Positions 6,499-22,234 of a stretch of 29,227 nucleotides of DNA are shown piece by piece. The stretch spans positions 3,728-32,954 of the forward strand of contig CAJUQZ010000022.1 of assembly GCA_910588755.1 (NCBI GenBank). Reading direction: 5' to 3'. Source of the DNA: an uncultured Lachnospiraceae bacterium. GTDB lineage: Bacteria; Bacillota; Clostridia; Lachnospirales; Lachnospiraceae. Numbering within the stretch: the stretch's first letter is position 1; every line of letters begins with the position of its first letter. A model generated the notes under the pieces. That model was not told the DNA's origin and did not search any database. It saw nothing but the letters and a program-made list of their open reading frames with translations. The position numbers and the translations under genes were made by a program.

Positions 6499-7540
6499 AG
6501 AAGAACACGAAAGATCACAATGGGAATCCGGACAGGCCCTTCTGCACAGCGAATCCGTCAAAAAACACAATGACGGCCAACGGGAGAACGACAGGGAACG
6601 CAGCAAGGAAAACGAATCGTACCGCGTGCAAAATTCTTACGGAACCCTCCGCTATCTCAAAAAAGACAAAAAGAAGGGTGAGGAAAAAGAAGGCTTTGCC
6701 GTGGAGGCCTTCGAGGCGCCAAACACCCGTCTCCACACGGACGCGGAAAAACACCTGGACCGCAAGAGCATCAAGAAAGTAAAGCAGAATCATAAGCATA
6801 CCCTATATTCCTCCGAGCTTCCCCTGCGCGACCAGGCGCTCTTTATCGACATGCGGGGCGGCAAAAAAAGTGCGGACATGATCCAGTACATGAAGACGCT
6901 TGTCCAAAAACAAGGGCACCAGACCTTAAAGGACACCTTTGGTTTCCTGGACCAGGAGGAGGAGCGCGCGGAGCTAGAAGCCCTGAAGGAAAAAAGAAAA
7001 TCAGAGGAAAGCAATGAACAGGCATTGATGCAGAAATCAGAAAAAAGCCCTGAACAGGATTTGACACAGAAATCAGAAAAAAACCCTGAACAGGCATTGA
7101 TGCAGAAATCAGCACACAAGCCTGAACAAGAAACCGAGGAAAAAGACTTCGCTTCCCACGAAGACATGATATCCCAGAGAGAACATCAGTTTGAGAATAA
7201 TAAGCGCATCGATACCCTAAACAGCCGCCTTCGCAGAAAAGAAGCCTTAGAACGCCAGCTTCGAAACGATCTGCAGGTCATGCTGGACCAGCGTGGCCGG
7301 GAGGAGGTGCTTGAAGCACAAAAGGACCCCTCGCAGAATGCGTCTGAAACTGCTGACACCAAACAAAATCCAAAGCAGAGCGCTGCCAAAAAGGACGATT
7401 CCACGCGGAGGCGCTTTCGCGTGGACACAGAGGTTTCAGAGGCCGACGGAACCGTTTCCGGCGCGGACGAAGATGTTTTCGGGACAGATGACTCCTCCGG
7501 CCCCGACGAGGACGGAATGCCTCAGGATACAGTTCCTTAG
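6473..7540 (+). CDS. Hypothetical, highly charged K/E/Q/D-rich protein with 12-aa tandem repeats, probably largely disordered
   Basis: This is a long open frame overlapping the 3' end of the ATPase gene. Possible starts are GTG 6464, ATG 6473 and ATG 6482. I recognise no enzymatic motif. The composition is low-complexity, so the coding call rests on ORF length, co-orientation and the in-frame repeat structure. Confidence 0.6.
   Translation: MENMGTYFEEEHERSQWESGQALLHSESVKKHNDGQRENDRERSKENESYRVQNSYGTLRYLKKDKKKGEEKEGFAVEAFEAPNTRLHTDAEKHLDRKSIKKVKQNHKHTLYSSELPLRDQALFIDMRGGKKSADMIQYMKTLVQKQGHQTLKDTFGFLDQEEERAELEALKEKRKSEESNEQALMQKSEKSPEQDLTQKSEKNPEQALMQKSAHKPEQETEEKDFASHEDMISQREHQFENNKRIDTLNSRLRRKEALERQLRNDLQVMLDQRGREEVLEAQKDPSQNASETADTKQNPKQSAAKKDDSTRRRFRVDTEVSEADGTVSGADEDVFGTDDSSGPDEDGMPQDTVP
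7013..7130 (+). repeat. Three full 36-nt in-frame tandem repeats plus a partial fourth, encoding (N/P)EQ(A/D)L(M/T)QKSEK(S/N)
   Basis: Read directly from the sequence: aatgaacaggcattgatgcagaaatcagaaaaaagc / cctgaacaggatttgacacagaaatcagaaaaaaac / cctgaacaggcattgatgcagaaatcagcacacaag / cctgaacaag... Confidence 0.9.
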
Positions 7541-9144
7541 CATTCCATTTTCGCCTTGTACTCCAGACACAGCATTGTAATATCGTCAAACTGCGGCGCT
7601 TCCCCCACGAACGCATCCAGGTCCGCTTTGATTTCCGGCAGCAGTTTTATCGGCGGCAGGGCTGCATTTTTACAGAGCACATTTTTCAGCCGCTCCATCC
7701 CATAGAGTTCATTGCCCTCATTGGCCGCCTCTGTGACGCCGTCCGTATACTGGAAAATCTTATCCCCTATTTCCAGCTGCATGGAACCGCACTGGTATTG
7801 TATATCCTCAAGCCCGGCAAGGACAAACCCTGCTTTGATCTTATAAGGTTCATACGTTTTGCCCTTTTTGCACAAAAAGGGGATCTCATGGCCCGCATTG
7901 ACAAAGCAAAACTCCCCTGTCACAAGGTCCAGCACACCCTCAAAGGCAGTGATAAACATTCCTTCTGAGTTGGATTTACACAGCAGATTGTTCACCTCTG
8001 TAAACACCTCGCCCAGATTTCTTCCCGGCTTTGTATGATCCTTAATCAGCGTCTTGCCGATCACCATAAAGAGTGCGGCGGGCACTCCTTTACCGGAAAC
8101 ATCTGCCATGACAATCGCAAGATGACTATTGTCCACCATGAAGAAATCATAAAAATCGCCGCCCACTTCCTTTGCCGGGTTCATGCTTGCATAGATATCA
8201 AATTCCTTCCTGTCCGGAAATGCCGGAAAAATTCCAGGCAGCATATCGGCCTGTATCTTCGTTGCCACGTTCAGTTCAGCGCCAATCCGCTCCCTCTCCG
8301 CTGTGATCGTCTTGATATCCGTTATGTACAGCTCTATCCTGCCGATCATGTTATTGAAAGAATCGGACAACCATTTAATCTCATTGTTGTCCTTAAATGT
8401 GACCGGCTCAAGCGTGAGGCTCCCTTTTTCATAAGAATCAATATACTTTGTCAATGCAATGATGGGGCTTGCCACACCCGTGTCGATCACCCTGACCATG
8501 ATCGCAGTAATCACAACAAGCGCTACGACAATGAAAAAGAAGATTTTCAGCACATAACTGTTGATTTCCCGCTCCACTCTGGTCAGCACATAATCGCCCT
8601 CCACCATAGCAGCAACTTCACCGTTTCTGTCAAAAACAGGCGCCCACACAGAAATAGATCTTCCAAACCCCACATCTTCGCCGTATACCACCTGCGTAGA
8701 TGCGCTTTTGGCCTTCACATCGGGCAGCAGATAGGTATATTCTGTCTCCCTGTATTCAAAGACAGAACCAAACGCAGATATATTGTCCATATCGTCCTGA
8801 TCGGTATAAGCGTCGATCACATACACGAAATGGTCTTCATAAGGCACCATGAGATACAGATAACTCAGTCCCGACGTATTTGCCTTGACGTTGTTGAACC
8901 GGGACAGCAGCGCGTCATATGCCTCATCCGTACTGCCCGTATCAACATATTGGACAATCTTATCCCCATCAATCTCATTTGCCAGCATCTTCACAATGCC
9001 AAGGGCCTTGTCATAATAAAAATTGATATAAGTATTATAAAACGCTTTGTAACTGATGCATATCAAAATAAAACTCATAACAGCAACCAATATACATATG
9101 ATGCCAATGATCTTTCTCCTCAGGCCTATTCGTTTTTTATTCAT
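7537..9144 (-). CDS. Membrane-bound PP2C (SpoIIE/RsbU-type) serine phosphatase with domain order TM, extracytoplasmic Cache-like sensor, TM, HAMP, PP2C
   Basis: The N-terminal TM segment is IIGIICILVAVMSFILICI and the second TM is IFFFIVVALVVITAIMV. PP2C motifs are EVGGDFYDFFMVDNSHLAIVMADVSGKGVPAALFM, ...VNAGHEIPFL... and QYTDGVTEA...DDITMLCLEY. The start overlaps the GNAT stop (ATGAATAA). Confidence 0.9.
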   Translation of the reverse strand: MNKKRIGLRRKIIGIICILVAVMSFILICISYKAFYNTYINFYYDKALGIVKMLANEIDGDKIVQYVDTGSTDEAYDALLSRFNNVKANTSGLSYLYLMVPYEDHFVYVIDAYTDQDDMDNISAFGSVFEYRETEYTYLLPDVKAKSASTQVVYGEDVGFGRSISVWAPVFDRNGEVAAMVEGDYVLTRVEREINSYVLKIFFFIVVALVVITAIMVRVIDTGVASPIIALTKYIDSYEKGSLTLEPVTFKDNNEIKWLSDSFNNMIGRIELYITDIKTITAERERIGAELNVATKIQADMLPGIFPAFPDRKEFDIYASMNPAKEVGGDFYDFFMVDNSHLAIVMADVSGKGVPAALFMVIGKTLIKDHTKPGRNLGEVFTEVNNLLCKSNSEGMFITAFEGVLDLVTGEFCFVNAGHEIPFLCKKGKTYEPYKIKAGFVLAGLEDIQYQCGSMQLEIGDKIFQYTDGVTEAANEGNELYGMERLKNVLCKNAALPPIKLLPEIKADLDAFVGEAPQFDDITMLCLEYKAKMEC

Positions 9145-9724
9145 AGCCGCCTCCGTTCCTGTCTCTGCCTCTTACTTCCAGAAGTTCTATCAGCGCGCCG
9201 CATCGGCAGTCATCACCGCATATGGGGCACTTGATGTTATATTTTTTTAGGTCTTTATAAAACAGGGGAATTTTTTTCTGATACACTGCTTCTCCGATTC
9301 CCCTTAACGGATTTTGGGCCGGAACGCTGCCGTCCGGATAAATCCACAGTTCCACAAGCGCAAGCGCAACTTTTTTGCTAAGAAGCGCTCTTTTCATCCG
9401 GCGGACCAGTTCTTTCGCAACCCCTTTTTTTCGGTACGCTTCCAGCACCAGAAGTCCGTCAGGCGTATACAGTTTCCTGTCTCCTGCCACTTCCCGGATC
9501 TCGTTTTCCAGTTCAGGGTGTGGATAGGTGAATCCAATCCCGCCCTGTCCCGAAAAAAATCCCACCAGCTTCCCTCCGTCACAAGCCTTCAAACCCAGGT
9601 AATCATCAGTATGAAATTCCTTCCGTATTGTGTCGCGAATGTAACCGCCTCTATTCAGGTAAGTCTCGTACAAAGCGATAATCTGATCTAAATCTTTTTC
9701 TTCTATACAGGAATATGTAACCAT
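9137..9724 (-). CDS. GNAT-family N-acetyltransferase with a C-terminal Cys cluster
   Basis: The acetyl-CoA motif A-like segment reads LLVLEAYRKKGVAKELVRRM. The C-terminal cluster reads CPICGDDCRCG. A GGAGG SD lies 9 nt upstream of the start. The gene overlaps the downstream phosphatase gene by 8 nt. Confidence 0.75.
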   Translation of the reverse strand: MVTYSCIEEKDLDQIIALYETYLNRGGYIRDTIRKEFHTDDYLGLKACDGGKLVGFFSGQGGIGFTYPHPELENEIREVAGDRKLYTPDGLLVLEAYRKKGVAKELVRRMKRALLSKKVALALVELWIYPDGSVPAQNPLRGIGEAVYQKKIPLFYKDLKKYNIKCPICGDDCRCGALIELLEVRGRDRNGGGYE

Positions 9725-9730
9725 CGCATC

Positions 9731-12634
9731 CTACCTCCTCTTTCTGTCCGCTCCCAAAAACAGGCAAACCAGTAAAAACATCAAAAGAAACAGCACAAAA
9801 ATACCAGTTCGATTCCCAAGTGTGAGCGCAGCGCCATATATAACCGGTCCAAGCGTCTGCCCGGCATTTTCAAACATGGCATAAATTCCCATCGCATTTC
9901 CCATTCCTGCCTCGGAACACTCATCCAGCCCTTCAAAATAGGTATACTGGCAAGTGTACGCAAAGGAGATCACCACAGCTAGGATAATCATGCCTGCAAA
10001 GACACTGACCGGATTCGGAAACAGGGCAAACAATGCCATGTCAAAAGCCATGCACAGACTTGCCAGAACCACGCTCTTCTTCGCCCCAAGCGTCCTCAAA
10101 AGGTATTTCGAGAGCAGCGGCCCTATATAGATCACAAGCATACCACAGCCAAGATAAATCCGCCCGATGGTGACTTCATCGACACCAAACTGTTCCACAT
10201 ACAACGGGAAGAAATATTCCCGGTAGGACAGCGACATCATAAACGGAACCAGAATCAGCGCAAAGAAAGCCATGACACGCTTTTGGAACAAAAAACGGAC
10301 AATATGCATACGCTCCTGTGTCTCTTTCTTACCGTTACCGAATTTCACATTTTGCGCCTGTATCGTAAGCAGCAGCCCCAAACCTAAGAAGATGGCACCT
10401 GCCAGATATACGATCCTGTAATCGGCAAACGCGAGAATGATCGAGCCAAGCCCTGCCCCGATCGTGACGCCGGAAAGCACTCCCGCCGAGACATCGGCAA
10501 AGGCAGACGCTACGTACTCATCATTGCCGCCCATAGACGCCATTGTGTTGGAAGTCACATACACAGTTCCCATTCCCATACCAATCAGTAGTTTCCCTGC
10601 CAGGATTCCCATATAACCGGGAACCAACAGGCAGATGATAAAACCTGCCATCTGGCCGGTAAGCCCCAGCTGCATAACTCTCTGTATGCCGAATTTCTCC
10701 GCCAGCCTGCCGCCGCACGTTGAAAATATGGCAGCCATCATCAGCTGCAGGGATATCGGAAGCGCAATGGCAAGTTCGCGCGAAATAGGGAACACGTCTG
10801 TATAGAGTCTGGAACAGAGAATCGCGATAAAGGCATCCTGCATGGAATCCGTCATATATGACAGAAAAACCATCAGCCGTATTGGCATCTGCTGTGTGAT
10901 ATCCCATTTTGCTTTCGGTATCCCCTTTCTTTTCTCAAAAAAAGAAAGGACAAAAATGCACTCCAATACCAGCATGATCATGACACCGCAGCTGCAGATG
11001 ACCGTTATGATGTTTTCTGCCACCAGTTCCCTTTTTTCCTGCACTGCCTTGTCAAGACTCGAACCCACCTCAATAAACGCAATGATGGCGCCGCTGTTGT
11101 CCCTGACAGGCAGCAGCGTAAACATCCATGAACCATAGGAACTAATCTCACTGACCGTATAGCTTTCTCCCGTCACCAGGACCTGTGTGTACTCATTGTC
11201 GCCAAACGCATAGATTGGCTGCCCGCATACCGTCGTGTCCTCATAGTCCATCAGACAGTTGATCGTTTTGCCATCTGTCGTATACAGGGCATAGTAGTAA
11301 TATGCCCCGTGGTCATAACTGGTCAATATCATTTGATCAAGCCTGTTCTTAATCTCCATATACTCCTGCGAGTGGTAATCGGACAGCCTTCCCAGTCGTT
11401 TCAGTTTCTCTGCGTCCACCTGCTGTCTGAGACTTTCCGCAAAAATCTGCATATTGTCCATAATCAGTCTGTCCTGATTGTCCATCATGGAGGAAATCGA
11501 GGAATAAGACGCGATCGCCGCCACAATTGCAGAAGAAACAACTACCAGCACAATTCTGCTAAAACCAGCTTTATCTGGTATACCCCGCACAATCTTTGTG
11601 ATGATTGTTATGACCATGACGACAGCTGCTATGCCGGCCATCATCAGCAAAATCCAGAAGTTCACCACCCTGAAATAGTTTCCGACGCCAGTGCTCTCCC
11701 ATACTGTCGGTATCATATCCGAAACATTCAGACTGATAAAGCGCTCATTATCGGTCGCGAGTATGGTTCTGCCATCTTCCGACAGACAAATTGCATAGAG
11801 TATGTTATCACTCTGACAGACGGCCTTTGTCTCACCAGGTGCAGACAGGGAAAAATGCATGATACAACCCGTCTGCAAATCTGTATAATACACCTGGCCG
11901 TCCACAGACGCAATGTTCCACGGAATCTGGTTCCCTACATAACATGGAACTTCTGACCAGTTCCCAGTCCGCAGGGAATGATAATATATTTCGCCTAACC
12001 TGGTCGTGATGACCAGCGTTTGACTTGCTGCATCATAGGCGGCATCACTGACATAAAACGCACAGGGAACTTCCGCTGACTTCTCCACCTGACAATCTTC
12101 ACCTTCCACATGAATCTTGTATATGTCTATCCTCGCATCTTCTTTCTTCAGAAAGTATACACTGCCTTCATACGCCTGCACTTCCAATATACCGCCATAC
12201 TGTAGGGGCGGATTTTCACTGAGCGCATAATCAAACTCATATATGATTTCCCGCTGATGCCCTGTGATTTTGATAATGCGCTCTTTCTGTATGCGGTTGC
12301 CCTGCTCCCCCGAGATCACGTCCGCTATGTAGATTCCGCCAGAATCATCTCCGCAGACGTGGGCGGCATAGAAAAAATCTGCCCGTTCGCTTCCTCCGGA
12401 GAGTTTTCGGATCAATTCCCCTCTGCTATTTAAGACAATAACCGTTTTTTTGCCCTGATCGATCACATACGTGCTGCCGTCGCTCCCCCGCGCAGCCTCG
12501 CCGACCGATTCGAATGTATATTCTTTTGTGAAGGGGGACTGGGACACTGCCTCGCGATTCCAGTACAAAAAAACCGCCAGGCAGACTCCCACCAGCAGAC
12601 AACCGGCAATCCTGAACCATTTTCTCTTTTCCAT
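9731..12634 (-). CDS. 967-aa fusion protein with domain order signal-anchor TM, beta-propeller-like repeats, 2 TM, Cache-like domain, MFS transporter
   Basis: The N-terminal roughly 300 aa contain about six repeats of the type STYVIDQGKKTVIVLN / GIYIADVISG / GSVYFLKKED / QTLVITTRLGEIYY / GQVYYTDLQTG / GRTILATDNE. The middle domain reads ...YYYYALYTTDGKTINCLMDYED...SYGSWMFTLLPVRDNSGAIIAFIEVG. The C-terminal roughly 400 aa are polytopic, with the MFS-like loop GGRLAEKFGIQRVM. Confidence 0.8.
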   Translation of the reverse strand: MEKRKWFRIAGCLLVGVCLAVFLYWNREAVSQSPFTKEYTFESVGEAARGSDGSTYVIDQGKKTVIVLNSRGELIRKLSGGSERADFFYAAHVCGDDSGGIYIADVISGEQGNRIQKERIIKITGHQREIIYEFDYALSENPPLQYGGILEVQAYEGSVYFLKKEDARIDIYKIHVEGEDCQVEKSAEVPCAFYVSDAAYDAASQTLVITTRLGEIYYHSLRTGNWSEVPCYVGNQIPWNIASVDGQVYYTDLQTGCIMHFSLSAPGETKAVCQSDNILYAICLSEDGRTILATDNERFISLNVSDMIPTVWESTGVGNYFRVVNFWILLMMAGIAAVVMVITIITKIVRGIPDKAGFSRIVLVVVSSAIVAAIASYSSISSMMDNQDRLIMDNMQIFAESLRQQVDAEKLKRLGRLSDYHSQEYMEIKNRLDQMILTSYDHGAYYYYALYTTDGKTINCLMDYEDTTVCGQPIYAFGDNEYTQVLVTGESYTVSEISSYGSWMFTLLPVRDNSGAIIAFIEVGSSLDKAVQEKRELVAENIITVICSCGVMIMLVLECIFVLSFFEKRKGIPKAKWDITQQMPIRLMVFLSYMTDSMQDAFIAILCSRLYTDVFPISRELAIALPISLQLMMAAIFSTCGGRLAEKFGIQRVMQLGLTGQMAGFIICLLVPGYMGILAGKLLIGMGMGTVYVTSNTMASMGGNDEYVASAFADVSAGVLSGVTIGAGLGSIILAFADYRIVYLAGAIFLGLGLLLTIQAQNVKFGNGKKETQERMHIVRFLFQKRVMAFFALILVPFMMSLSYREYFFPLYVEQFGVDEVTIGRIYLGCGMLVIYIGPLLSKYLLRTLGAKKSVVLASLCMAFDMALFALFPNPVSVFAGMIILAVVISFAYTCQYTYFEGLDECSEAGMGNAMGIYAMFENAGQTLGPVIYGAALTLGNRTGIFVLFLLMFLLVCLFLGADRKRR

Positions 12635-12666
12635 CTGATTCCCCTGTACAATGCTGCGCTAAATTC

Positions 12667-12963
12667 TTATATGATTGACAGGATATCTGCAAAACCTGTC
12701 ACCTCAAAGATTTCCATTATTGTATCATTTACATGAGCCACTTTCATGCTGCCCTGCCTGTTCATCGTCTTCTGTGCGCCCAGCAGAACACGCAGTCCCG
12801 CGGATGACAGATAATCCAGCGCCGCCATGTCAATCGTAAGCTCCGTCACGCCTTCAAGGGAATCTTTCAGCATGCCCTCAAGCTCTGGTGCCGTGCTTGT
12901 ATCAAGCCGTCCTTCTAAAGCCAGTGTTAAATTGTTTCCATTTTGTGTTTTTGTTATTTTCAT
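12667..12963 (-). CDS. STAS-domain anti-sigma-factor antagonist (SpoIIAA/RsbV-like), copy 1
   Basis: The 98-aa protein reads MKITKTQNGNNLTLALEGRLDTSTAPELE...TIDMAALDYLSSAGLRVLLGAQK...VNDTIMEIFEVTGF. The S-x-G-L phospho-serine motif is present. Confidence 0.9.
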   Translation of the reverse strand: MKITKTQNGNNLTLALEGRLDTSTAPELEGMLKDSLEGVTELTIDMAALDYLSSAGLRVLLGAQKTMNRQGSMKVAHVNDTIMEIFEVTGFADILSII

Positions 12964-12974
12964 GAATTTCTTCC

Positions 12975-13034
12975 TTTCTTATCTGCACATTTCTTATCTG
13001 CGCATTTCTTATCTGCACATTTCTTATCTGCACG
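12975..13034 (-). repeat. Four perfect or near-perfect 15-nt tandem direct repeats in the leader of the STAS gene
   Basis: The plus strand reads tttcttatctgcaca / tttcttatctgcgca / tttcttatctgcaca / tttcttatctgcacg at 12975, 12990, 13005 and 13020. On the minus strand the unit is TGTGCAGATAAGAAA. The array ends 11 nt from the STAS ATG and abuts its SD (AGGAAGAA). Confidence 0.95.
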
Positions 13035-13167
13035 TTGGCCAGCTCAATTTGCCTGTACATGATCCAGGAAAGCAAGGCTCCTCGCCAACATGACCTATTA
13101 TATTATCTATACTTTTTTTATATAATTTCCGTTACAGGAACGAATGTTTTGCGCCTTTCTGTACAGT

Positions 13168-13578
13168 CTATATCAGTTTCCTAATACGCAATATATTCTG
13201 TCCGTCCTTATACTCATAAGAAACATCATCCATCGTCCTCTTTACCATGTAGATTCCCAGACCGCCAATCTCGCGTTCTTCAGCGGAAAGCGTGATGTCA
13301 GGGTCTTCCCTGGCAAGCGGATCATACGGAATGCCATTGTCCATAAACGTTATCACAACCGCAAGCGGGTCCTTCGCCACCTCAACGCGCACTGTTGCGC
13401 TGCCAATTTCAGGATTGTAAGCATAATGGGCAATATTGCTGAAAAGTTCTTCAACCGCTATATCAACCTGCATCTGCGTCTTTATGGGACAATGATACTG
13501 CTCGAGCTGCGCATCAACAAATTCGAGCACTCCAGGTACGTTTTCAATTGTTGCCTCAACCATCCATTCTTTCATCAT
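13168..13578 (-). CDS. RsbW/SpoIIAB-type anti-sigma-factor-like serine kinase (HATPase_c_2), stand-alone
   Basis: The sequence reads MMKEWMVEATIENVPGVLEFVDAQLE..QMQVDIAVEELFSNIAHYAY (N-box), ITFMDNGIPYDP (G1) and IGGLGIYMVKR (G2). The start is ambiguous among TTG 13581, ATG 13578 and ATG 13575. The ORF-track start at 13611 is probably too far upstream. Confidence 0.85.
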   Translation of the reverse strand: MMKEWMVEATIENVPGVLEFVDAQLEQYHCPIKTQMQVDIAVEELFSNIAHYAYNPEIGSATVRVEVAKDPLAVVITFMDNGIPYDPLAREDPDITLSAEEREIGGLGIYMVKRTMDDVSYEYKDGQNILRIRKLI

Positions 13579-13707
13579 CAATCCCCCATGCCTCCAATCC
13601 CCGGGCCACATGTTTCTTGCAGGCCGTTCCCTCCTGCTTCTTTTTCATTGTCATTGTGAACTTTCCTTCCCTTTCCTTCCTAAGGAACTGTCCCTTTTTT
13701 ATTTCTA

Positions 13708-14202
13708 TTACCAAAACCTGTCGAGGGACTGTCCCCTGATACTGTACTGCATAATCTTATCCCTAAGCTCTGCGGTCCTTTTCTTATTGGTATGATCCTT
13801 GTCATAAATATCATCCAGCAAAAGTTCGACGTTCTTCTGCATGAGGTGAAAACTCTGCGCCATACTTGTCATGATATCAACAGCATTTCTCGGATAATTC
13901 ACAATAAATTTCTCCACAGAGTCCTTTGTAATCCGCATCAGCAAGACATCGTCATACGCCACAGCTGTATAGATACAGGGTTGATCAGAAAATATGTTCA
14001 ACTCCCCAAAGCACCTTGGCTTTGAATAGATTCCTACAATGTGCTCATCCTTTTCCCCATACCGCATATAGATCGCTACAGAGCCGGATAAAATCTTATA
14101 CATTGCATCACATTTTTCTCCTTCGCGCATAATCATCTCATCTGCGCTGAATTTCTGCATTGCGCTGTTTTTGTTTGCTGTATCCTGTTCCAATTCCGCC
14201 AT
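13708..14202 (-). CDS. Stand-alone cyclic-nucleotide-binding (CAP effector) domain protein with no DNA-binding domain
   Basis: The sequence reads MIMREGEKCDAMYKILSGSVAIYMRYGEKDEHIVGIYSKPRCFGELNIFSDQPCIYTAVAYDDVLLMRI, which matches the beta-roll/phosphate-binding-cassette pattern (FGE...). A GGGAGGA SD lies upstream. Confidence 0.75.
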   Translation of the reverse strand: MAELEQDTANKNSAMQKFSADEMIMREGEKCDAMYKILSGSVAIYMRYGEKDEHIVGIYSKPRCFGELNIFSDQPCIYTAVAYDDVLLMRITKDSVEKFIVNYPRNAVDIMTSMAQSFHLMQKNVELLLDDIYDKDHTNKKRTAELRDKIMQYSIRGQSLDRFW

Positions 14203-14223
14203 ATTTTTATTCCTCCCGTCTTT

Positions 14224-16020
14224 TTATATTTTTGGTGTGGTTTCGGCATTCGGTTTATTCAGGACTATGACCAGTACATTGAGTCCCATTTTGCGCGCGT
14301 AATCGACGCGGTCGGCAATGGACGAGATGATCCGAATGCCAAACTGTTGTTCTTCGCCAGTTTTGTCCGCTGTATGCAAGTAATTCCAGGGGTCAAATGC
14401 GGCCCCGTTATCACGCATACGTATCATGACGGACGCTGGTTTATCTATAATCAATACATCAAACCATTTCTTTTCTCCTGGCCTGAAAGCATGCTTCACC
14501 ACATTTCCGGCCATTTCCTCTATACACAGGGAAATCTCATTGAGCATTGTTTCATCAATATCGTGATGATGCCCTAACTTGCAGATATCAGATGCAATCC
14601 CCATAACCTCGTCCATACTGTTCCCGATGGAGATCTCCAGTCTGTCTTTGGGATTTCCTCCAAAATCTTCTTCCAAAAGCATATAGGAAGAAATCTCCGG
14701 GGAAAATTTCCTGTTCCTGTACGTGACATACAATACGACTGTAAGCAGCGTCAATATTTCCCCAAGAAGAAACGCAATCCACACGCCTGTGCTGCCCACA
14801 GGCTTAATCAGTATCAATGCAATAATCACAGTAAACACCAGATTTTCGAGTATACAGATCAGTGTGGCCAGACCTGTTTTCTTCGTACTTTGATAAAAGT
14901 TCATCAGTACATTGTTCAGCAATGCCACGGGCATTCCAACCGCAAACAGCCGTATCGCCAGCGTTGACATTTCCCTGATATCCGGCCCGGTAACGCCAAA
15001 CGCGTCTGTTAAAACCGCAGGGAATAACAGCAGTATCACCGCCGCGATGCCGCTGAGCGTCAGTCCTATTTTGAGGGTGGTTTTCAGCGTATCCTTTAGG
15101 GCTGTCCCATCCTCCTCCCCATAGAACATACCCACTACCGGAATGACTGCCTGACCGATCCCGACAACCAATGCACCCATGATATTGTTGGCCTGTGTCC
15201 GGACATTCAGCGCTGTGACCGCACCCACGCTGACTGCTGTCACCATTAGATTGTTCAGGAACATTACTTTTAAGGTATCGCTAATACGGCTGACTGCCGT
15301 GGGCGCTCCTGTAACAATGATGGAGAGAAGTTCCCTGAAAGCGCCCCTGACCGGCACCAGCTTTAAGGTGCTGTAAGATTTGATAAAATGCGAGCAGCCG
15401 ACGAAAACCGCAATATAATAGCTGACCGCTGTCGCCAGCGCCATGCCAAACATTCCTTTATGCAGTACCAGCACCATGAGCAGATCCAGCGCGATATTAC
15501 ATGCAGACATAACGATGATACATATGACCGGAAGCCTGGGCGAACCGTCAATACGGATAAACCCCATCAGCGCCGTCATCATGATCGTAGGAAGCGCACC
15601 CAAAAAATAACCGCGTAAATACTGCGTGGTCAGTTCCTTCAATACGCCCTTTGCGCCCAAAACGTCCGCAATCTGTGATGTGAGAAGCAGACCGCCCGCG
15701 GTGAGAAAAAGGCCTGCAAAAAACGCAAAAAACATGGTAATGGTAAATATACGGCAGACCTGCTCCCTGTCCCCCCTGCCCATAGCCTGCGAGGCCCTTG
15801 CTGTACCGCCTCCTGAGCAGATATTCCCAAAAGCGGAGAGGAGCAGGCTTACAGGCCCCACAACGCCCATTGCGCCCAGCGCGTCCGGACCAAGATACCT
15901 GCCGACGATAATATTATCAATCAGCATTCCTACCGTTGCTGTCAAAGCGGACAAAATAGAAACCGTCACAAAAGAATAATATAACTTCCGTACAATATAG
16001 TCATTCCTCGTGCCATTCAT
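14224..16020 (-). CDS. MATE-family efflux transporter fused to a C-terminal cytoplasmic RsbW-like HATPase domain
   Basis: The first roughly 450 aa are typical of a MATE transporter (YYSFVTVSILSALTATVGMLIDNIIVGRYLGPDALGAMGVVGP..., 12 hydrophobic segments). The C-terminal roughly 140 aa read LEISIGNSMDEVMGIASDI...ISLCIEEMAGNVVKHAF (N-box), VMIRMRDNGAAFDP (G1) and QQFGIRIISSIADRVDY (degenerate G2). Confidence 0.85.
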   Translation of the reverse strand: MNGTRNDYIVRKLYYSFVTVSILSALTATVGMLIDNIIVGRYLGPDALGAMGVVGPVSLLLSAFGNICSGGGTARASQAMGRGDREQVCRIFTITMFFAFFAGLFLTAGGLLLTSQIADVLGAKGVLKELTTQYLRGYFLGALPTIMMTALMGFIRIDGSPRLPVICIIVMSACNIALDLLMVLVLHKGMFGMALATAVSYYIAVFVGCSHFIKSYSTLKLVPVRGAFRELLSIIVTGAPTAVSRISDTLKVMFLNNLMVTAVSVGAVTALNVRTQANNIMGALVVGIGQAVIPVVGMFYGEEDGTALKDTLKTTLKIGLTLSGIAAVILLLFPAVLTDAFGVTGPDIREMSTLAIRLFAVGMPVALLNNVLMNFYQSTKKTGLATLICILENLVFTVIIALILIKPVGSTGVWIAFLLGEILTLLTVVLYVTYRNRKFSPEISSYMLLEEDFGGNPKDRLEISIGNSMDEVMGIASDICKLGHHHDIDETMLNEISLCIEEMAGNVVKHAFRPGEKKWFDVLIIDKPASVMIRMRDNGAAFDPWNYLHTADKTGEEQQFGIRIISSIADRVDYARKMGLNVLVIVLNKPNAETTPKI

Positions 16021-16028
16021 ATGTATTA

Positions 16029-17027
16029 TTATCCCTTCTTACTTTCTGCCTGCTTCTTTAACCCCACAGTCATTGCGTCCAATATATCATTCTGGGAAAT
16101 AATAAAGCCCAAAAACTGCCTGATCTGTTCCAGATTATCCACAACGCCGCAGTCATCAATCTCCAAAAGCGACATATAGGCCATCGCCACACGATACGCA
16201 ATGAACAATTCCAGGTGATCCCAATAGTGCGCATCACATTCCTTATTCAGTTCATATCCGATCTTAAAATAAGGAAGCATCTCCTCATAAAGCACTTTTC
16301 TGCAGTCTTCCCCCGCCCTGTATCCCATCAAAAAACAGGCCTGGACAAAACTTGCCACATCATACAGATAATTTGCATACGTACATCCATCAAAATCAAA
16401 CAGCCAGATATTATTTTCTTCCACAAAAAAATTATTGATATGAAAATCCCCGTGGCAGATGCCGTACCGACCCAATTCTTCCGGCAGGGCATCTACCTCC
16501 TGCTGGACAGCGCAAATCCTCGTTTCAATCTCAGGCGGAATCTTTTCCTTCACGCGGTTTTTCAGTTCTGCAAAAGTATCACTCATTCTTTTGCGGCTGT
16601 AGCGAATCCCCAGCTCTCTTTCATTGGTGCTGACATGGTGGATTGCCCCCAGCAGGTCGCCCACGCAGATAAAAAACATCGGCTTCATCTCCGTAGTCAG
16701 CTTTATGTTTCCGCGGGCCGTACGGAACATGCTGGCCCGGTACAACCTGCCGTCAATTTCAAATTCCTCAAGCAGAAGTCCATTCAGGGACGCATTAGGC
16801 TCACAAACCGTCTGCTTAAATGGCTTTAAGTCATCTACCCACATCAGTTCGCTTAATATCTCGCTTCTGGTTTTTTTCGGAGAGATACTCACACGGATCA
16901 TATATGGCTTTTCTGAAAAAACGAACGCGTAATTTTGTGTGGAATAACGGCATACCGCCTCCTTGATATCTACCCCGTAGCGTTCCAGCAAAACCTCGCG
17001 TATCTTCTGTTTTAATTCTTCATTCAT
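16029..17027 (-). CDS. APH/choline-kinase-fold phosphotransferase
   Basis: The Brenner/catalytic loop reads ICHGDFHINNFFV and the metal-binding segment reads IWLFDFDGC. Only 8 nt separate its stop from the MATE start. Confidence 0.8.
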   Translation of the reverse strand: MNEELKQKIREVLLERYGVDIKEAVCRYSTQNYAFVFSEKPYMIRVSISPKKTRSEILSELMWVDDLKPFKQTVCEPNASLNGLLLEEFEIDGRLYRASMFRTARGNIKLTTEMKPMFFICVGDLLGAIHHVSTNERELGIRYSRKRMSDTFAELKNRVKEKIPPEIETRICAVQQEVDALPEELGRYGICHGDFHINNFFVEENNIWLFDFDGCTYANYLYDVASFVQACFLMGYRAGEDCRKVLYEEMLPYFKIGYELNKECDAHYWDHLELFIAYRVAMAYMSLLEIDDCGVVDNLEQIRQFLGFIISQNDILDAMTVGLKKQAESKKG

Positions 17028-17159
17028 GCCCTGTTTCTCCCTTTTTCATATTAATATCTGATTACAATACCCTGACAGCTGCCAAATGCAAAGAGAATGC
17101 TATTTTTTCCAGATAAGTCCCTGCCTGTCACAGGCACCATGAAACAACATCCCATTTTT

Positions 17160-17187
17160 ATTGTAGTGAATTGCAGATAAAAGGCAA
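17160..17187 (-). promoter_or_regulatory. Candidate sigma-A promoter for the APH-to-phosphatase operon
   Basis: The minus strand reads TTGCCT (17187-17182), a 16-nt spacer, then TACAAT (17165-17160). This would leave a leader of about 125 nt. It is a weak consensus match. Confidence 0.3.
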
Positions 17188-17246
17188 GCGATCTGGCAGG
17201 AACGTCAATTTTCTGGCAGAAACGAAGTATTCCAAAAAGCACTTGG

Positions 17247-17864
17247 TCAAATTTGCAGGATTTCCTCCTTCCATGCCGCAGTCTGTGAAAATAATTCTTC
17301 CATATTCATTTTCGAAAAATCTGTTGTGTCAACTTTGATTTGTCTGCCACCAACGCAAAAAGCATCAAATCCCCTCTTTTCGATTCCACAGACAAAATCC
17401 TCATAAGAAATCTTTTTCGCTTTCAGGATTTTAGGATCATTCTCTTTCTTTTCCGGATAACAGCCATTCACTACATGCCCCCTGTGCCTGTCAGGGCTGC
17501 TTTCCCGCTCCAAAAAACGCTGGTAAATCGCTTTGTAATCCCCTGTCAGGGTAATGGTCAACGCAAAATATTGATATTTTTCCAAAAGATTTTTCATTCC
17601 CTGTTCTGACGCATATTCAAAATTATTCTCCAGAATCAAAGGTAATCCCGCCTTCATAAGCTAGCCTGCGACATCATACATGATTTCCATACTGGCAACT
17701 CCAAGCTTTACTTTTTCTGCTCTCGACTGAAAACCAACCGTATCAAACAAAAGTTCTTTTATGGCATCCTTTGAAATCACAGGCAGTTTTAATCTTTCTG
17801 ACAGCACTGCTGCCATCGTGCTTTTTCCTGCTGCCGGAATACCTGTCACTATTATACAATACAT
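17247..17864 (-). pseudogene. P-loop kinase-like NTPase (AAA_33/CPT/shikimate-kinase-like fold) interrupted by a single in-frame TAG
   Basis: The N-terminal part reads MYCIIVTGIPAAGKSTMAAVLSERLKLPVISKDAIKE...DVAG and stops at TAG (17663-17661). The same frame continues L-M-KAGLPLILENNFEYASEQ... to 17247. Together the two track ORFs (67 aa and 136 aa) form one protein of about 205 aa. Confidence 0.7.
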
Positions 17865-17867
17865 TTT

Positions 17868-18650
17868 TCATGCTCCTTTGAAATGAACGGTTTCTATTGC
17901 CACGCCAAGTTTCCTTACCTGTTTCACAAAATCCTCAGACACATTCTCGTCCGTAATCAGTAAATCATAATCTTTTACCCGGCATACAGAATGAATGGAA
18001 TTTTTTCCGACCTTCCTGGACGGATATAGCCCAATGTTCATCGTGCTGTTCTTCATAACAGCTTTTCCAAATTCCACACCGGCGGGATCATGAATGGAGG
18101 CTCCAAAGTCAAAAGACAATGCCGCGTGCGATAAAAACGCTTTATCCATGCGGATATTTTTTACCATTTGAATGGTATAAAAATCATGGCAGTGGCCACG
18201 ATGGTTCATTGCACCGCCCAATACGATAACGGATATATTTATTTTTTTTCGCAGCGCCTCAGCGATGGTAACGGAATTTGTCAATACTGTAATAGTTATA
18301 TCATCCGGTAAATTTTCAGCCATATAATACCCAACCAAAGACGTCGTAATATATATAACCTCCTTGTCTTGGATATATTCGATTGCTTTTTTGGCAACTG
18401 CCAGGTGATCCGTCTGTATTTCTTTGATATCGATTGGATTATATGTCGGCGCAGGGTATATTTCTTTTGAATCAATCGCAATGGCACCGCCATGTGTTCT
18501 CTGCAGCAATCCTTTACTTTCCAATACTTTTAAGTCCCGCCTTACACAATCCGCCGAAACTTGATAACATTCCTGAATTTCCGATACCAGGATTCGTCCT
18601 GTCTGGTTGAGCTTATTAAGAATATCCTTCTGTCGTTCTTCCATAAACAT
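17868..18650 (-). CDS. DeoR-family transcriptional regulator (HTH plus DeoR C-terminal sensor domain)
   Basis: The sequence reads MFMEERQKDILNKLNQTGRILVSEIQECYQVSADCVRRDLKVLESKGLLQRTHGGA. A GAGGG SD lies 7 nt upstream of the ATG at 18650. A good promoter lies inside the longer track ORF, so the start at 18743 is rejected. Confidence 0.85.
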   Translation of the reverse strand: MFMEERQKDILNKLNQTGRILVSEIQECYQVSADCVRRDLKVLESKGLLQRTHGGAIAIDSKEIYPAPTYNPIDIKEIQTDHLAVAKKAIEYIQDKEVIYITTSLVGYYMAENLPDDITITVLTNSVTIAEALRKKINISVIVLGGAMNHRGHCHDFYTIQMVKNIRMDKAFLSHAALSFDFGASIHDPAGVEFGKAVMKNSTMNIGLYPSRKVGKNSIHSVCRVKDYDLLITDENVSEDFVKQVRKLGVAIETVHFKGA

Positions 18651-18701
18651 AAGCAATCCCTCGTTTTCGTGTTTGCAATTGTTTTTGTTTACTTGTATTT
18701 G

Positions 18702-18730
18702 ATTATACTTGTTTATTCCTGAATATACAA
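18702..18730 (-). promoter_or_regulatory. Candidate sigma-A promoter of the DeoR gene
   Basis: The minus strand reads TTGTAT (18730-18725), a 17-nt spacer, then TATAAT (18707-18702). Confidence 0.5.
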
Positions 18731-18850
18731 GACTTACTGACAAATATACACTTTATTTTTTGCCGCTGCGCTTTTTCACCATATCTTTCTTCCCATTTGT
18801 CCGATTTGTTCTGATAATTGGCAGTATTCTGTGAGAAAATCAATTTCCTA

Positions 18851-18879
18851 TTGACAACCAAACGATATACTGTTAAAAT
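18851..18879 (+). promoter_or_regulatory. Candidate sigma-A promoter with an extended -10 element
   Basis: The sequence reads TTGACA (18851-18856), a 17-nt spacer ending in TGT, then TAAAAT (18874-18879). Confidence 0.6.
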
Positions 18880-18906
18880 TACACAAAATAAAGGAAGAAT
18901 GATGCT

Positions 18907-19005
18907 ATGATTACATTTTTAATGACCCTGAACAACAAAATGAACCAGCAACAGCAGCAGCTTATTGTCGGAACTGACAACGGGCTTTTTGGGCTGTGTT
19001 CATAA
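18907..19005 (+). CDS. Candidate 32-aa small ORF or leader peptide (MITFLMTLNNKMNQQQQQLIVGTDNGLFGLCS)
   Basis: An AAAGGAAG SD lies about 9 nt upstream. The ORF sits between the promoter at 18851 and the terminator at 19039. No homology is recognisable to me, and this could equally be a non-coding leader RNA. Confidence 0.3.
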   Translation: MITFLMTLNNKMNQQQQQLIVGTDNGLFGLCS

Positions 19006-19038
19006 CAAGTGTCTTATCCTGGTTAATCTGAACGAAAC

Positions 19039-19075
19039 GGTCAAAAGCCTGATATGGGTTTTTGACCTTTTTTAT
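19039..19075 (+). terminator. Rho-independent terminator
   Basis: The stem is GGTCAAAA(gcc)...(ggg)TTTTGACC and is followed by TTTTTTAT. Confidence 0.7.
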
Positions 19076-19084
19076 GCGCAGCGG

Positions 19085-19176
19085 CGAGTAGTGGAGAAGG
19101 TCATTCCCCTACTCGATTGCACACGGGCACCCGGCGCGCGCGAAGGGGAATGGCTTTTCCCCTTCTCAATTTTGAT
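19085..19176 (+). promoter_or_regulatory. Four-segment leader with mutually exclusive hairpins (a putative transcription attenuator) upstream of the MetRS-like gene
   Basis: Segment 1 is CGAGTAGTGGAGAA (19085-19098). Segment 2 is TTCCCCTACTCG (19104-19115). Segment 3 is GAAGGGGAA (19142-19150). Segment 4 is TTCCCCTTC (19157-19165), followed by tcaATTTTgat. The possible pairings are 1:2, 2:3 (TTCCCCT with AGGGGAA) and 3:4 (9 bp, terminator-like). Confidence 0.45.
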
Positions 19177-19216
19177 AATCATTCCATCTGTCAGGAATTT
19201 GGAAAGGAGGTATACC

Positions 19217-21292
19217 ATGCCGGAACAGTCAGAGCTTCCCCAGCAAAAAGGGAAGCCGGTAATCACGAAAACAACGAACAACAGAAAGGAAAAAACGAAT
19301 ATGAGCTGTAAGCGGTTAACTTCAAGTGAACGCCCGACATTTCCCAGACGGGCTGTCATTACGGCAGGTATGCCATATGGAAATAAAAATTTGCACTTTG
19401 GACATGTAGGCGGTATGTTTATACATGCAGATATATTTGCGCGGTTTTTAAGAGACCGGATCGGAAAAGACAATGTGATCTTTCTGTCAGGAACAGACTG
19501 TTATGGCTCTCCTATCATGGAAAGCTATCGCAGGCTGCAAGAAACAGGGTATGAAGGCACGCTGGAGGATTATGTGCGCGCCAACCACGACAGTCAGAAG
19601 AAAACCCTGGAAAATTATGGGATCAGCCTCGATTTCTTTGGCGCGTCGGCCCTGGGGGAGGCCGGTCCGATTCACAGGCAGGTTTCAGCGAAGGTATTTC
19701 ATACCTTATACAAAAATGGATATATTCGTAAAATGTCCATGCCGCAGTTTTATGACGAAGAAAAAAAGATGTTTTTAAACGGAAGACAGGTGACGGGAAA
19801 ATGCCCCATACCAGGATGCGCTTCAGAGAAAGCATACGCCGATGAGTGTTCCCTGGGACATCAGTTTCTGCCTTCGGAGCTGATCAATCCTGTCAGCTGC
19901 CTGTCAAATAAAAAGCCTGTCCTCAAAGATGTGGAGAACTGGTATTTTGATTTGGAATACTGCATTCCTGCAATAAAGGACTATAACGATTTCCTGCGAA
20001 AAAACACCAATACGCGCAAGTATCAGTTAGAGACCGTAGAAGAATTTCTGAAAAAGCCCTTGCTGTATGTCCCAAAAAAGTATATCCATGACCTGGCGGA
20101 ACTGGCGGCAAAGCTGCCCCCGCATAAATTGACCAACGAGGAAAAGAAGCCGTCTGTCGTGTTTGAATTTGAAAATCTGGATGACCGCGACAAGGCGAAA
20201 GATGTACTGGAAGCCAACAGCATTCATTATACTTCCGGAAAGACGCTGGTTCCCTTTCGGCTGTCCGGCAATGTGGAATGGGGCGTACCATTCCCGGAGT
20301 GCGAAGAATTAAAAGACCTCACCTTCTGGGTATGGCCGGAATCGCTGTGGGCGCCGATCTCCTTTACTCTGGCCTATTTGAAAGAACAGGGAAAGGATGA
20401 CGGCTTATCCAGGTGGTGGTATGACGAGGACGCACAAGTTTATCAGTTTATTGGAGAGGATAACATTTATTTCTATGCCATCGCCCAGACGGGGTTATTC
20501 ACAGGGCTGCAGGTTCCCAGGGGGGAAGTCCCGGACATGGAGGCTGTGCATCTGTCCCACATCATAGCGAACCGGCATCTGCTGTATATGGATACAAAAG
20601 CCAGCAGCAGCTCCGATCTAAAGCCTCCCGCGGCAGATGAACTGCTGGATTATTACACCAAAGACCAGCTGCGAATGCACTTTATGAGCCTTGGCCTGTC
20701 CTCCAAAAGTGCAGGTTTTAAGCCGCAGGTATTTATGAAAGAGGAGGACAGGACTGGCGTAGATATGGTTCTGAAAGATGGCAATTTAATCACCAATGTG
20801 TTTAACCGGCTCATCCGAACCTGCTTCTATGCGATTCAGAATAACTATGACGGAAAAATTCCTGCAGGCGATGTGAGTGAATCCATCAGGCTGATGACCG
20901 AAAAAGCGGTTCTTGATTATGAGCGGCACATGTACAACCATGAGTTTCATCGGATTTCTTATGTTTTAGATGACTTTATCCGATCCATAAACAAGCATTG
21001 GGTAAACAACGTGAAGCTTGCGGATGCCACAAGCGACGCGGCATTCAGACATCAGCTCGTCATTGACTGTTTTTATGCCTGTAAGGTTATGGCAGTCCTG
21101 ATTCACCCGATTGCACCGGAAGGATGCGAGATGTTTCGGGAATATCTGAACCTGGGGGAGGAATTGTGGGACTGGCGTACTATATTTGAACCGGTTACTT
21201 ATTATATTGCGGACGTGGAGAAGCATCAATTGAAATATCTGGAACCGAGAGTCGATTTCTTTAAAAAGCATGACTGCCAGCTGGGAATATAA
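19217..21292 (+). CDS. Class I aminoacyl-tRNA-synthetase family protein, MetRS-like (E. coli-type with a zinc knuckle), with a non-canonical KMSKS loop and no C-terminal tRNA-binding appendix
   Basis: The HIGH region reads MPYGNKNLHFGHVGG. Further segments are FLSGTDCYGSPIM, the knuckle KCPIPGCASEKAYADECSLGH, and YQFIGEDNIYFY. The KMSKS position reads DTKASSSS. A strong GGAAAGGAGG SD lies 6 nt before the ATG at 19217. The track ORF start at 18965 would read through a promoter-proximal terminator, so it is rejected. Confidence 0.8.
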   Translation: MPEQSELPQQKGKPVITKTTNNRKEKTNMSCKRLTSSERPTFPRRAVITAGMPYGNKNLHFGHVGGMFIHADIFARFLRDRIGKDNVIFLSGTDCYGSPIMESYRRLQETGYEGTLEDYVRANHDSQKKTLENYGISLDFFGASALGEAGPIHRQVSAKVFHTLYKNGYIRKMSMPQFYDEEKKMFLNGRQVTGKCPIPGCASEKAYADECSLGHQFLPSELINPVSCLSNKKPVLKDVENWYFDLEYCIPAIKDYNDFLRKNTNTRKYQLETVEEFLKKPLLYVPKKYIHDLAELAAKLPPHKLTNEEKKPSVVFEFENLDDRDKAKDVLEANSIHYTSGKTLVPFRLSGNVEWGVPFPECEELKDLTFWVWPESLWAPISFTLAYLKEQGKDDGLSRWWYDEDAQVYQFIGEDNIYFYAIAQTGLFTGLQVPRGEVPDMEAVHLSHIIANRHLLYMDTKASSSSDLKPPAADELLDYYTKDQLRMHFMSLGLSSKSAGFKPQVFMKEEDRTGVDMVLKDGNLITNVFNRLIRTCFYAIQNNYDGKIPAGDVSESIRLMTEKAVLDYERHMYNHEFHRISYVLDDFIRSINKHWVNNVKLADATSDAAFRHQLVIDCFYACKVMAVLIHPIAPEGCEMFREYLNLGEELWDWRTIFEPVTYYIADVEKHQLKYLEPRVDFFKKHDCQLGI

Positions 21293-22223: not shown

Positions 22224-22234
22224 ATTGCTCCTCC

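Follow-up and report, generated by a model that had tools for sequence, protein, structure and literature searches.

Partner switching, in which a PP2C phosphatase, an RsbW-type kinase and a STAS antagonist act together, is the textbook mode of sigma-factor control, with a handful of other outputs. Known switches of the latter kind are SiaABCD and HsbR/HsbA in Pseudomonas, BtrU/V/W in Bordetella and SypE/SypA in Vibrio, and their outputs are a diguanylate cyclase, FlgM, and secretion or biofilm regulators. Among transporters, the SulP/SLC26 anion transporters carry a C-terminal cytoplasmic STAS domain, and MlaB is the STAS protein of the MlaFEDB ABC transporter, where it binds the ABC ATPase. 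Here we describe a gene on the minus strand at 14224..16020 of a 29,227-nucleotide stretch of DNA (the window) from an uncultured Lachnospiraceae bacterium (contig CAJUQZ010000022.1), which encodes a MATE-family efflux pump with a SpoIIAB/RsbW-type C-terminal domain (CTD). We find that this fusion, MATE-CTD, is a real, widespread and apparently undescribed form of partner switching, namely an exporter with its own RsbW-like receiver; our literature search returned no report of a MATE-GHKL fusion, nor of a secondary transporter controlled via a built-in RsbW-like domain.

The pump resembles the SulP/SLC26 proteins in being a secondary transporter with one half of the STAS/RsbW pair as its C-terminal regulatory domain, but it is their mirror image: the RsbW-like half sits on the transporter and the STAS protein is soluble, the transporter belongs to the MATE family, and the operon also encodes a STAS kinase and a phosphatase. 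As it mirrors the long-puzzling STAS domain of SulP/SLC26, the pump could be a tractable model for STAS/GHKL control of transport. With the non-sigma switches the window shares the set of PP2C phosphatase, RsbW-like kinase and STAS-type protein for control of a target other than a sigma factor, and at many loci the pump gene is flanked by STAS and by a fusion of PP2C and kinase, the arrangement of HsbR/HsbA, whereas the presumed target is here a transporter with an RsbW-like domain of its own. MlaB, as we propose for the window STAS protein (which has a weak NCBIfam mlaB_1 match, 3.3e-5), is a small STAS protein that binds and regulates a membrane transporter; it differs in that its partner is an ABC ATPase with no GHKL domain, and in that it is not known to belong to a kinase/phosphatase switch. 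Members of the family come chiefly from Clostridia of the gut and rumen, a setting in which efflux, tolerance of antibiotics and the export of secondary metabolites are of importance.

The pump core and its C-terminal domain

The pump gene and its parts are as follows (ORF, open reading frame; TM, transmembrane).

14224..16020, minus strand: MATE-CTD gene, a single unbroken ORF of 598 aa with Pfam MatE and HATPase_c_2 domains (AlphaFold2 full-length model, pLDDT 81.8)
14701..16020, minus strand (aa 1-440): PfMATE/DinF-like MATE core with 12 TM helices (Pfam, AlphaFold2, Foldseek)
14251..14688, minus strand (aa 445-590): cytoplasmic CTD of SpoIIAB/RsbW-type GHKL fold (Pfam HATPase_c_2, AlphaFold2, Foldseek)
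14485..14529, minus strand (aa 498-512): N-box LCIEEMAGNVVKHAF, with E501, E502 and N506 kept across the family
14389..14421, minus strand (aa 534-544): G1 box RMRDNGAAFDP, with D537, F542 and P544 invariant or nearly so
14326..14352, minus strand (aa 557-565): degenerate G2 box, or ATP-lid hinge, EQQFGIRII, with G561 as the sole remnant of GGLG

The MATE core is recognized by Pfam MatE in two stretches (E = 7.8e-33, 113.9 bits against a cutoff of 24.9), and NCBIfam TIGR00797 falls marginally under its cutoff (145.2 against 147.4). The full-length AlphaFold2 model (pTM 0.81, from a 46-sequence alignment) places 12 long helices within aa 7-436, with a b-a-a-b-b-a-a-b-b domain after them. The top PDB matches of the core in Foldseek are PfMATE structures (6hfb/3wbn/4mlb, TM-score by target 0.87-0.89); PfMATE, VcmN, DinF-BH and NorM are together matched at 0.82-0.89, with 22% sequence identity to PfMATE. 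Two acidic residues, D35 in TM1 and D179 in TM5, are invariant across the aligned close homologues, and the pump shares both the core fold and the TM1/TM5 acidic residues with the proton-coupled exporters PfMATE, DinF-BH and VcmN (6hfb, 3wbn, 4lz6, 6idp). With two MatE repeats, 12 predicted helices and D35/D179 kept, the core looks functional, and it is part of the explanation we favor that the 598-aa protein is probably a proton-coupled exporter of the PfMATE/DinF type. The top-ranked solved MATE chains (about 405-486 residues) differ from the pump in that they align only to the 12-helix core (about 450 residues) and have no C-terminal globular domain.

The tail matches Pfam HATPase_c_2 at aa 484-585 (E = 5.1e-12, 46.4 bits against a cutoff of 27.4), and is modeled confidently as a GHKL fold when taken alone (pLDDT 88.7, pTM 0.80). 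Its best 18 PDB matches in Foldseek are all SpoIIAB (1til, 1tid, 1th8, 1l0o), RsbW (6m36, 6m37) or UsfX (8ih8, 8jzt), with E = 2e-7 to 1e-5 and TM-scores by target of 0.72-0.81 (0.74-0.81 for 1th8, 1til and 6m36), and all of these structures were solved with STAS or sigma partners bound. SiaB-SiaC (6kko) is also among the matches. At the level of sequence, the CTD alone found no match at E ≤ 1 in a search of PDB sequences, and a word-indexed protein search gave 21 matches, fragments for the most part. The NCBIfam equivalogs for RsbW and SpoIIAB are not among the matches of the pump at E ≤ 0.001, and the only related NCBIfam match of the CTD is a weak one to RsbA_anti_sig (24.3 bits against a cutoff of 210). 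The preliminary description of this DNA had read the gene as a 12-TM MATE core joined to a SpoIIAB/RsbW-type tail with an N-box, a G1 box (RDNGAAFDP) and a degenerate G2 box (QQFGIRII). Pfam, the helices of the AlphaFold2 model and Foldseek agree on both halves, and all three motifs are there.

The N-box (L498-C-I-E501-E502-M-A-G-N506-V-V-K-H510-A-F) and the G1 box (R534-M-R-D537-N-G539-A-A-F542-D-P544) follow the SpoIIAB/RsbW patterns E-x-x-x-N-x-x-x-H and D-x-G-x-x-F-D. Among 67 representatives, E501 is kept in 66, E502 in all 67 and N506 in 65, while D537 and F542 are each found in 66 and P544 in 62; G561, Y574 and N581 are invariant. Position 539 in the G1 box varies: 25 of these sequences have Gly there, as the window pump does, while 37 have Cys and 4 have Ala. 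The E...N pattern of the N-box is likewise present in 82/87 CTDs at the loci described below. The Glu and Asn of the N-box are ligands of Mg-ATP, and their conservation, together with that of the G1 Asp, argues for retained nucleotide binding by the CTD.

Divergence from the co-encoded kinases

The G2 box sets the CTD apart. The pump segment EQQFGIRII occupies the position of GGLGLYL in RsbW, and when the RsbW-like domains from the flanks of 87 loci (annotated with HMMs iterated from the window proteins) were aligned, 79 of the 88 pump CTDs had a single Gly in this box, in the pattern x-[YFILMV]-G-[IL]-[RK]. A G-x-G of some form was seen in 7 of the 88 (5 in register), and GGxG in one (locus L073). 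By contrast, all 27 co-encoded RsbW-like kinases, comprising 13 stand-alone proteins, 13 fused to PP2C and one fused to APH, have GGxG, nearly always as IGGLGI. Within the window, the alignment of the CTD with the two other HATPase_c_2 domains (13168-13611 and the C-terminus of 22235-24358) gives the same picture, as both others have a canonical IGGLG, and the lid of the CTD is about 3 residues shorter than that of the neighboring kinase. The degenerate G2 box is thus a trait of the family and not a peculiarity of this one pump; we infer from it that the kinase activity of the CTD may be reduced.

A midpoint-rooted neighbor-joining tree separates 87 CTDs from 28 RsbW-like domains of other proteins, each of the two sets being monophyletic, and by this tree the CTD is a distinct and presumably old clade. 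A 757-aa protein, P0134, holds both types in tandem: the MATE core is followed by a tail with EKNIGIHMI, and this by a canonical kinase domain with KEIGGLGIYLI, so that tail and kinase do not appear to be interchangeable. Another pump, P0144 (754 aa), has two tandem RsbW-like domains, both degenerate. In fold and N-box the CTD is like SpoIIAB/RsbW, from which it descends and which it would resemble in working; the window pump further has an RsbW-like G1 box, and its operon supplies a PP2C phosphatase as well as a STAS protein that bears the phospho-serine motif. The CTD departs from SpoIIAB/RsbW in its fusion to the C-terminus of a 12-TM transporter, its one-Gly G2 box, the lack of a sigma factor nearby and its own clade relative to the co-encoded kinases. 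As the CTD differs from SpoIIAB/RsbW in three defining features (the G2 box, the sigma partner and the curated equivalog models), we do not class it as an anti-sigma kinase.

Distribution of the fusion

The preliminary description had allowed that relatives might carry the two parts as separate genes, and had called for a database search for the same fusion. The exact window protein is present on at least 8 contigs; a single substitution (A511T) separates it from its cluster representative, for which 15 contigs were read. When searching with the full-length protein, all 120 listed clusters have both MatE and HATPase_c_2, at 582-605 aa and down to 57% identity. With the CTD alone as query, an exhaustive HMMER search reached 231 representative clusters at E ≤ 1e-10. 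The best 150 of these include 66 of pump length (560-625 aa) with the domain at about 440-590, and the remainder mostly look like C-terminal fragments, with a few having other N-termini. In a scan of one genome per species, a relative is encoded in at least 232 genomes, and at the 79 listed loci the alignment reaches query residues of about 574-597, except for two loci cut by the end of a contig. The linker between pump and CTD is also conserved (L449, F453, G454).

That assembly or a frameshift has joined two genes is consequently ruled out, and we regard its probability as practically nil: the ORF is continuous on many independent contigs and samples, the fusion recurs throughout the listed clusters and species genomes, and the linker residues are kept. 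The two halves are one gene in hundreds of genomes.

The hosts are mainly Lachnospiraceae, Oscillospiraceae and other Clostridia, with further cases in Eggerthellaceae, Synergistes, Spirochaetes, Desulfoscipio, and metagenome-assembled genomes (MAGs) of Methanospirillum and Methanomethylophilaceae; Pfam confirmed the fusion in two of the loci discussed below (L056 and L057). The nearest genome match of the window pump among those listed is Lachnospiraceae bacterium UBA7179, at 90% identity. In a plasmid collection, tblastn found MATE cores only, matching query residues up to about 448, and no fusion. The source annotations that we saw read "MATE family efflux transporter", or "anti-sigma regulatory factor" for some fragments.

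The pump occurs in several variants. In a sub-family of about 890 aa, a Pfam HD-CE domain follows the tail (L072:3292-5967, L073, L077, L079; protein P0233), giving the order MATE-CTD-HD-CE. Paralogous pumps occur within one locus (L006:1079-4514 and L006:14096-15787; also L023:9763-11484), and among these paralogues there is a gene for a GH3-family amido synthetase followed by a MATE-CTD gene, as well as MATE proteins of 563-573 aa with a C-terminal extension of about 120 aa that has no HATPase_c_2 match, one of which adjoins a nonribosomal peptide synthetase (NRPS).

The window operon

The pump gene sits in a string of minus-strand genes with spacings of -8 to 204 nt, in the order APH, MATE-CTD, cyclic-nucleotide-binding protein, RsbW-like kinase, STAS, MFS protein, GNAT and PP2C.

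16029..17027, minus strand: 332-aa phosphotransferase of the APH family, encoded 8 nt upstream of the pump gene (Pfam APH 3e-15)
13708..14202, minus strand: stand-alone cyclic-nucleotide-binding protein, 164 aa (Pfam cNMP_binding 7e-20)
13168..13611, minus strand: canonical RsbW-like serine kinase, 147 aa, or 137 aa from an internal start (Pfam HATPase_c_2 1.3e-23)
12667..12963, minus strand: STAS protein of the anti-sigma-antagonist type, 98 aa (Pfam STAS 1.8e-15; TIGR00377 70.7 bits against a cutoff of 53.45)
9731..12634, minus strand: 967-aa protein in which a large non-membrane N-terminus and a sensor-like middle precede an MFS transporter at the C-terminus (Pfam MFS_1 at aa 588-899)
9137..9724, minus strand: GNAT acetyltransferase, 195 aa (Pfam Acetyltransf_1 1.5e-5)
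7537..9144, minus strand: membrane-associated PP2C (SpoIIE-type) phosphatase, 535 aa (Pfam SpoIIE 2e-43), with an 8-nt overlap with the GNAT gene

Having a PP2C phosphatase, an RsbW-like kinase and a STAS protein, the operon contains the components by which a partner-switching system is defined. The kinase has the G2 box EIGGLGIYMV and matches the PDB sequence of RsbW (6m36, 4.6e-5). The STAS protein carries the phospho-serine motif D-Y-L-S53-S54-A-G-L-R, of which Ser54 is the putative phospho-acceptor by alignment of the motif with SpoIIAA and other antagonists.

The APH protein, which the preliminary description did not mention, has an intact Brenner motif (HGDFHINN) and DFD motif. Compared with PDB sequences, its sole matches at E ≤ 0.01 are two entries for the amicoumacin kinase AmiN (best 6sui, 1.2e-15), and although the overall similarity is low, the best sequence match and the intact catalytic motifs align it with AmiN and the APH small-molecule kinases. 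Phosphorylation and export is a known principle of self-resistance, which the pairing of a small-molecule kinase and an exporter recalls.

Of the remaining operon proteins, the cyclic-nucleotide-binding protein is confined to the closest relatives (the L001-L003 contigs and L010), where it lies between pump and kinase. We detected no DNA-binding domain in its 164 aa, and it may bring a cyclic-nucleotide input into the switch. The 967-aa protein has a soluble N-terminus of about 330 aa and a membrane-flanked middle with weak similarity to the N-terminus of AtoS; at L010, L028 and L046 it is kept along with the GNAT and PP2C genes, and this switch may therefore have a second transporter connected to it.

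A PADLOC search gave no defense-system match for the pump, APH, kinase, STAS, PP2C or MFS proteins, and one weak match only (2.6e-4) for the cyclic-nucleotide-binding protein. A scan of 7000-19000 for promoters and terminators did not rise clearly beyond the expectation from shuffled sequence, and we made no use of it.

The neighborhood across relatives

Neighborhoods were counted at 61 species loci with at least 1.5 kb of sequence on both sides of the pump gene. A STAS gene lies within 6 kb of the pump in 33/61 loci, including 18 of the 33 loci of distant relatives (under 40% identity). Of 42 STAS genes near pump genes, 18 are within 100 bp of the pump gene, 26 within 1 kb, and 37 on the same strand. 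A PP2C gene is found within 8 kb in 20/61 loci and another HATPase_c_2 gene in 25/61, and at least one partner gene, APH included, is present in 45/61. Every one of the 49 STAS domains near pumps, whether free or fused, has the motif Y[ILV]SSAGLR. The placement of the pump inside a partner-switching network, which the preliminary description had proposed from the window, finds support in comparative evidence, with kinase, STAS and PP2C in the operon and a cassette that recurs elsewhere.

The most constant partner of the pump is the APH gene. It adjoins the pump gene in 33/61 loci, that is, in 27/28 relatives at ≥ 40% identity and in 6/33 below 40%, and 42 of 46 APH genes are within 100 bp of the pump gene, often with a 4-nt overlap. 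Homologues of 57-62% identity have a simpler order of APH, MATE-CTD, STAS and a 5TMR_LYT-PP2C-kinase fusion, with gaps or overlaps of 3-4 nt, and at some loci APH and MATE-CTD stand alone.

At three loci (L056, L057 and L058) there is a near-identical, tight cassette of STAS, MATE-CTD and 5TMR_LYT-PP2C-kinase without APH, in an Eggerthellaceae genome and in the Methanospirillum and Methanomethylophilaceae MAGs. This suggests either inter-domain horizontal transfer or contamination of MAG bins. Separately, genes for a MobA/MobL relaxase, a serine recombinase and TnpV adjoin a cassette of APH, MATE-CTD, STAS and PP2C-kinase (L007:7731-11425 and L006:1-344), a hint that mobile elements can carry the cassette.

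STAS and APH are also found as one protein. Pfam confirmed STAS-APH fusions beside MATE-CTD genes at three loci (L035:6781-7974, L040:3087-4262 and L064:2386-3570), the reverse order APH-STAS at one (L050:1272-2729), and a STAS-APH-HATPase_c_2 fusion with a canonical RsbW-like kinase domain at another (L065:6396-7988). In total, STAS/APH fusions occur at about 10 loci, always adjoining the MATE-CTD gene. We found no earlier description of this architecture, and as for AmiN-type kinases, from which the APH relatives differ in this respect, we know of no report of their fusion to STAS. The recurrence of the fusion offers a concrete and testable hypothesis, namely that a small-molecule kinase may be physically linked to an exporter.

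The role of the C-terminal domain

We suggest that the pump takes the place of a sigma factor as the output of a partner-switching circuit, and that its diverged CTD is the docking site for a phosphorylatable STAS protein; we would put the probability of this at roughly 55%. Starting from the architecture, fold, motifs, phylogeny, conservation, gene order and domain fusions observed here, we infer a STAS-CTD contact, a direction of control and a kind of substrate, as follows. The canonical kinase (13168-13611) would phosphorylate the STAS protein (12667-12963) at Ser54, and the membrane PP2C phosphatase (7537-9144) would strip off the phosphate on a signal, so that the STAS protein would switch between the kinase and an output partner, as gene order and domain fusions suggest. 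Unphosphorylated STAS would bind the CTD of the pump, probably while the CTD is nucleotide-bound, because the N-box and the G1 Asp are kept; SpoIIAB, too, holds nucleotide when clamping SpoIIAA. This binding could gate transport, or recruit the APH-family kinase (16029-17027) to the pump, or possibly both, and recruitment would couple the phosphorylation of some substrate to its export.

A number of observations weigh against docking as the function of the CTD. No STAS gene is found within 6 kb in 28/61 loci and no partner gene of any kind nearby in 16/61, especially among the distant relatives. At 8 of the 10 STAS-APH loci the fused STAS domain keeps its serine although neither a further kinase nor a phosphatase is encoded within 8 kb, which leaves the CTD as the sole candidate kinase nearby. 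A few CTDs (L005, L012, L025, L061, L062, L073) keep an in-register GxG or GGxG, and the near-invariance of E501, E502, N506 and D537 fits ATP binding while being compatible with catalysis as well. Furthermore, large non-pump proteins in the flanks that look like putative histidine kinases of the LytS/YesM type have a single-Gly "HIGI" at the aligned position, so one glycine is no proof of inactivity.

The main rival explanation builds on these same points, and holds that the CTD is an active serine kinase and the pump a sensor, or "transceptor", whose transport cycle sets the phosphorylation of STAS or STAS-APH, such that the signal runs from the pump to the network. The N-box Glu/Asn, the G1 Asp and one Gly of the G2 box are nearly invariant over about 90 sequences, down to 27% identity, and the STAS-APH loci without another HATPase_c_2 or PP2C gene, as well as the single-Gly histidine-kinase-like proteins, would be readily accounted for. 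We nevertheless consider it rather unlikely, since GGxG is universal in the co-encoded kinases and lost in nearly all CTDs, with a shorter lid in the pump, since complete modules always have a dedicated kinase beside the CTD, and since P0134 has both domains in one chain, which argues for different jobs. The proposal in the preliminary description that the tail is a receiver rather than an enzyme is supported indirectly, by G2 loss, reciprocal monophyly and P0134, with the caveats that the conserved N-box and G1 ligands argue for retained nucleotide binding and that most STAS-APH loci have no other kinase or phosphatase within 8 kb.

The constancy of the APH gene, which is nearly always immediately next to the pump gene among the closer relatives, the many loci that have APH and MATE-CTD with no STAS within 6 kb, and the retention of the nucleotide-binding residues could also be explained if the CTD works independently of STAS, as a nucleotide-sensing or APH-binding tail that ties the APH kinase directly to the exporter; the association of the partner-switching genes would then be no more than a loose one. 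Among the 33 distant relatives, however, the neighbor is APH in 6 and STAS in 18, the archaeal and actinobacterial cassettes carry STAS and PP2C-kinase without APH, and the repeated STAS-APH fusion is explained most simply if STAS is an adaptor that touches the RsbW-like CTD; we therefore think a STAS-independent tail unlikely. Less probable by far is that the CTD is a membrane-tethered anti-sigma factor, with a sigma factor held at the pump and freed on STAS binding, a reading that we reject because sigma genes are essentially absent near pumps. The nearest structures (SpoIIAB, RsbW and UsfX) are indeed anti-sigma factors, and the Pfam family is named for anti-sigma kinases, but we found no sigma factor gene among the window ORFs scanned and no clear one in the Pfam-annotated loci L001-L008, and a scan of all 87 loci with hand-written seed sequences found sigma-like ORFs at only 2, where they lie over 5.5 kb away from the pump. 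The missing RsbW and SpoIIAB equivalogs point the same way.

A further and distinctly tentative step would be to regard MATE-CTD, STAS and APH as a phosphorylation-gated "modify-and-export" machine. Unphosphorylated STAS, be it a free protein or part of an APH fusion, would anchor the small-molecule kinase on the pseudokinase tail, where a metabolite or toxin would be phosphorylated and handed to the exporter, and the PP2C/RsbW switch, fed by membrane sensors and here perhaps by a cyclic nucleotide, would toggle the assembly, which gut anaerobes, archaea among them, may have passed on horizontally. If true, partner switching would here be put to a new use, namely the post-translational assembly of a transport metabolon.

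Other features of the window

A second partner-switching module and its neighbors occupy 21921-24358 and 24424-29066 (both minus strand). The module consists of a 707-aa HAMP-SpoIIE-HATPase_c_2 fusion, with a canonical IGGLG and a low-complexity insert in the kinase domain, and a STAS protein of its own with the variant motif YIASSGLRE, and it directly adjoins genes for a phosphopantetheinyl transferase and for an NRPS with a terminal reductase domain. The NRPS cluster is separated from the pump operon by a methionyl-tRNA-synthetase-like gene (tRNA-synt_1g) at 18965-21292 on the plus strand, a TTG-start ORF of 775 aa that is 691 aa in the gene call of L001, and which could be a paralogue or a resistance copy. 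A P-loop kinase-like gene (weak AAA_33/AAA_18 matches) at 17247-17864 on the minus strand is split by one in-frame TAG at 17661-17663 into ORFs of 67 and 136 aa. Gene calls on three independent contigs (L001-L003) show this split as well, and the gene may be a pseudogene or be expressed by read-through.

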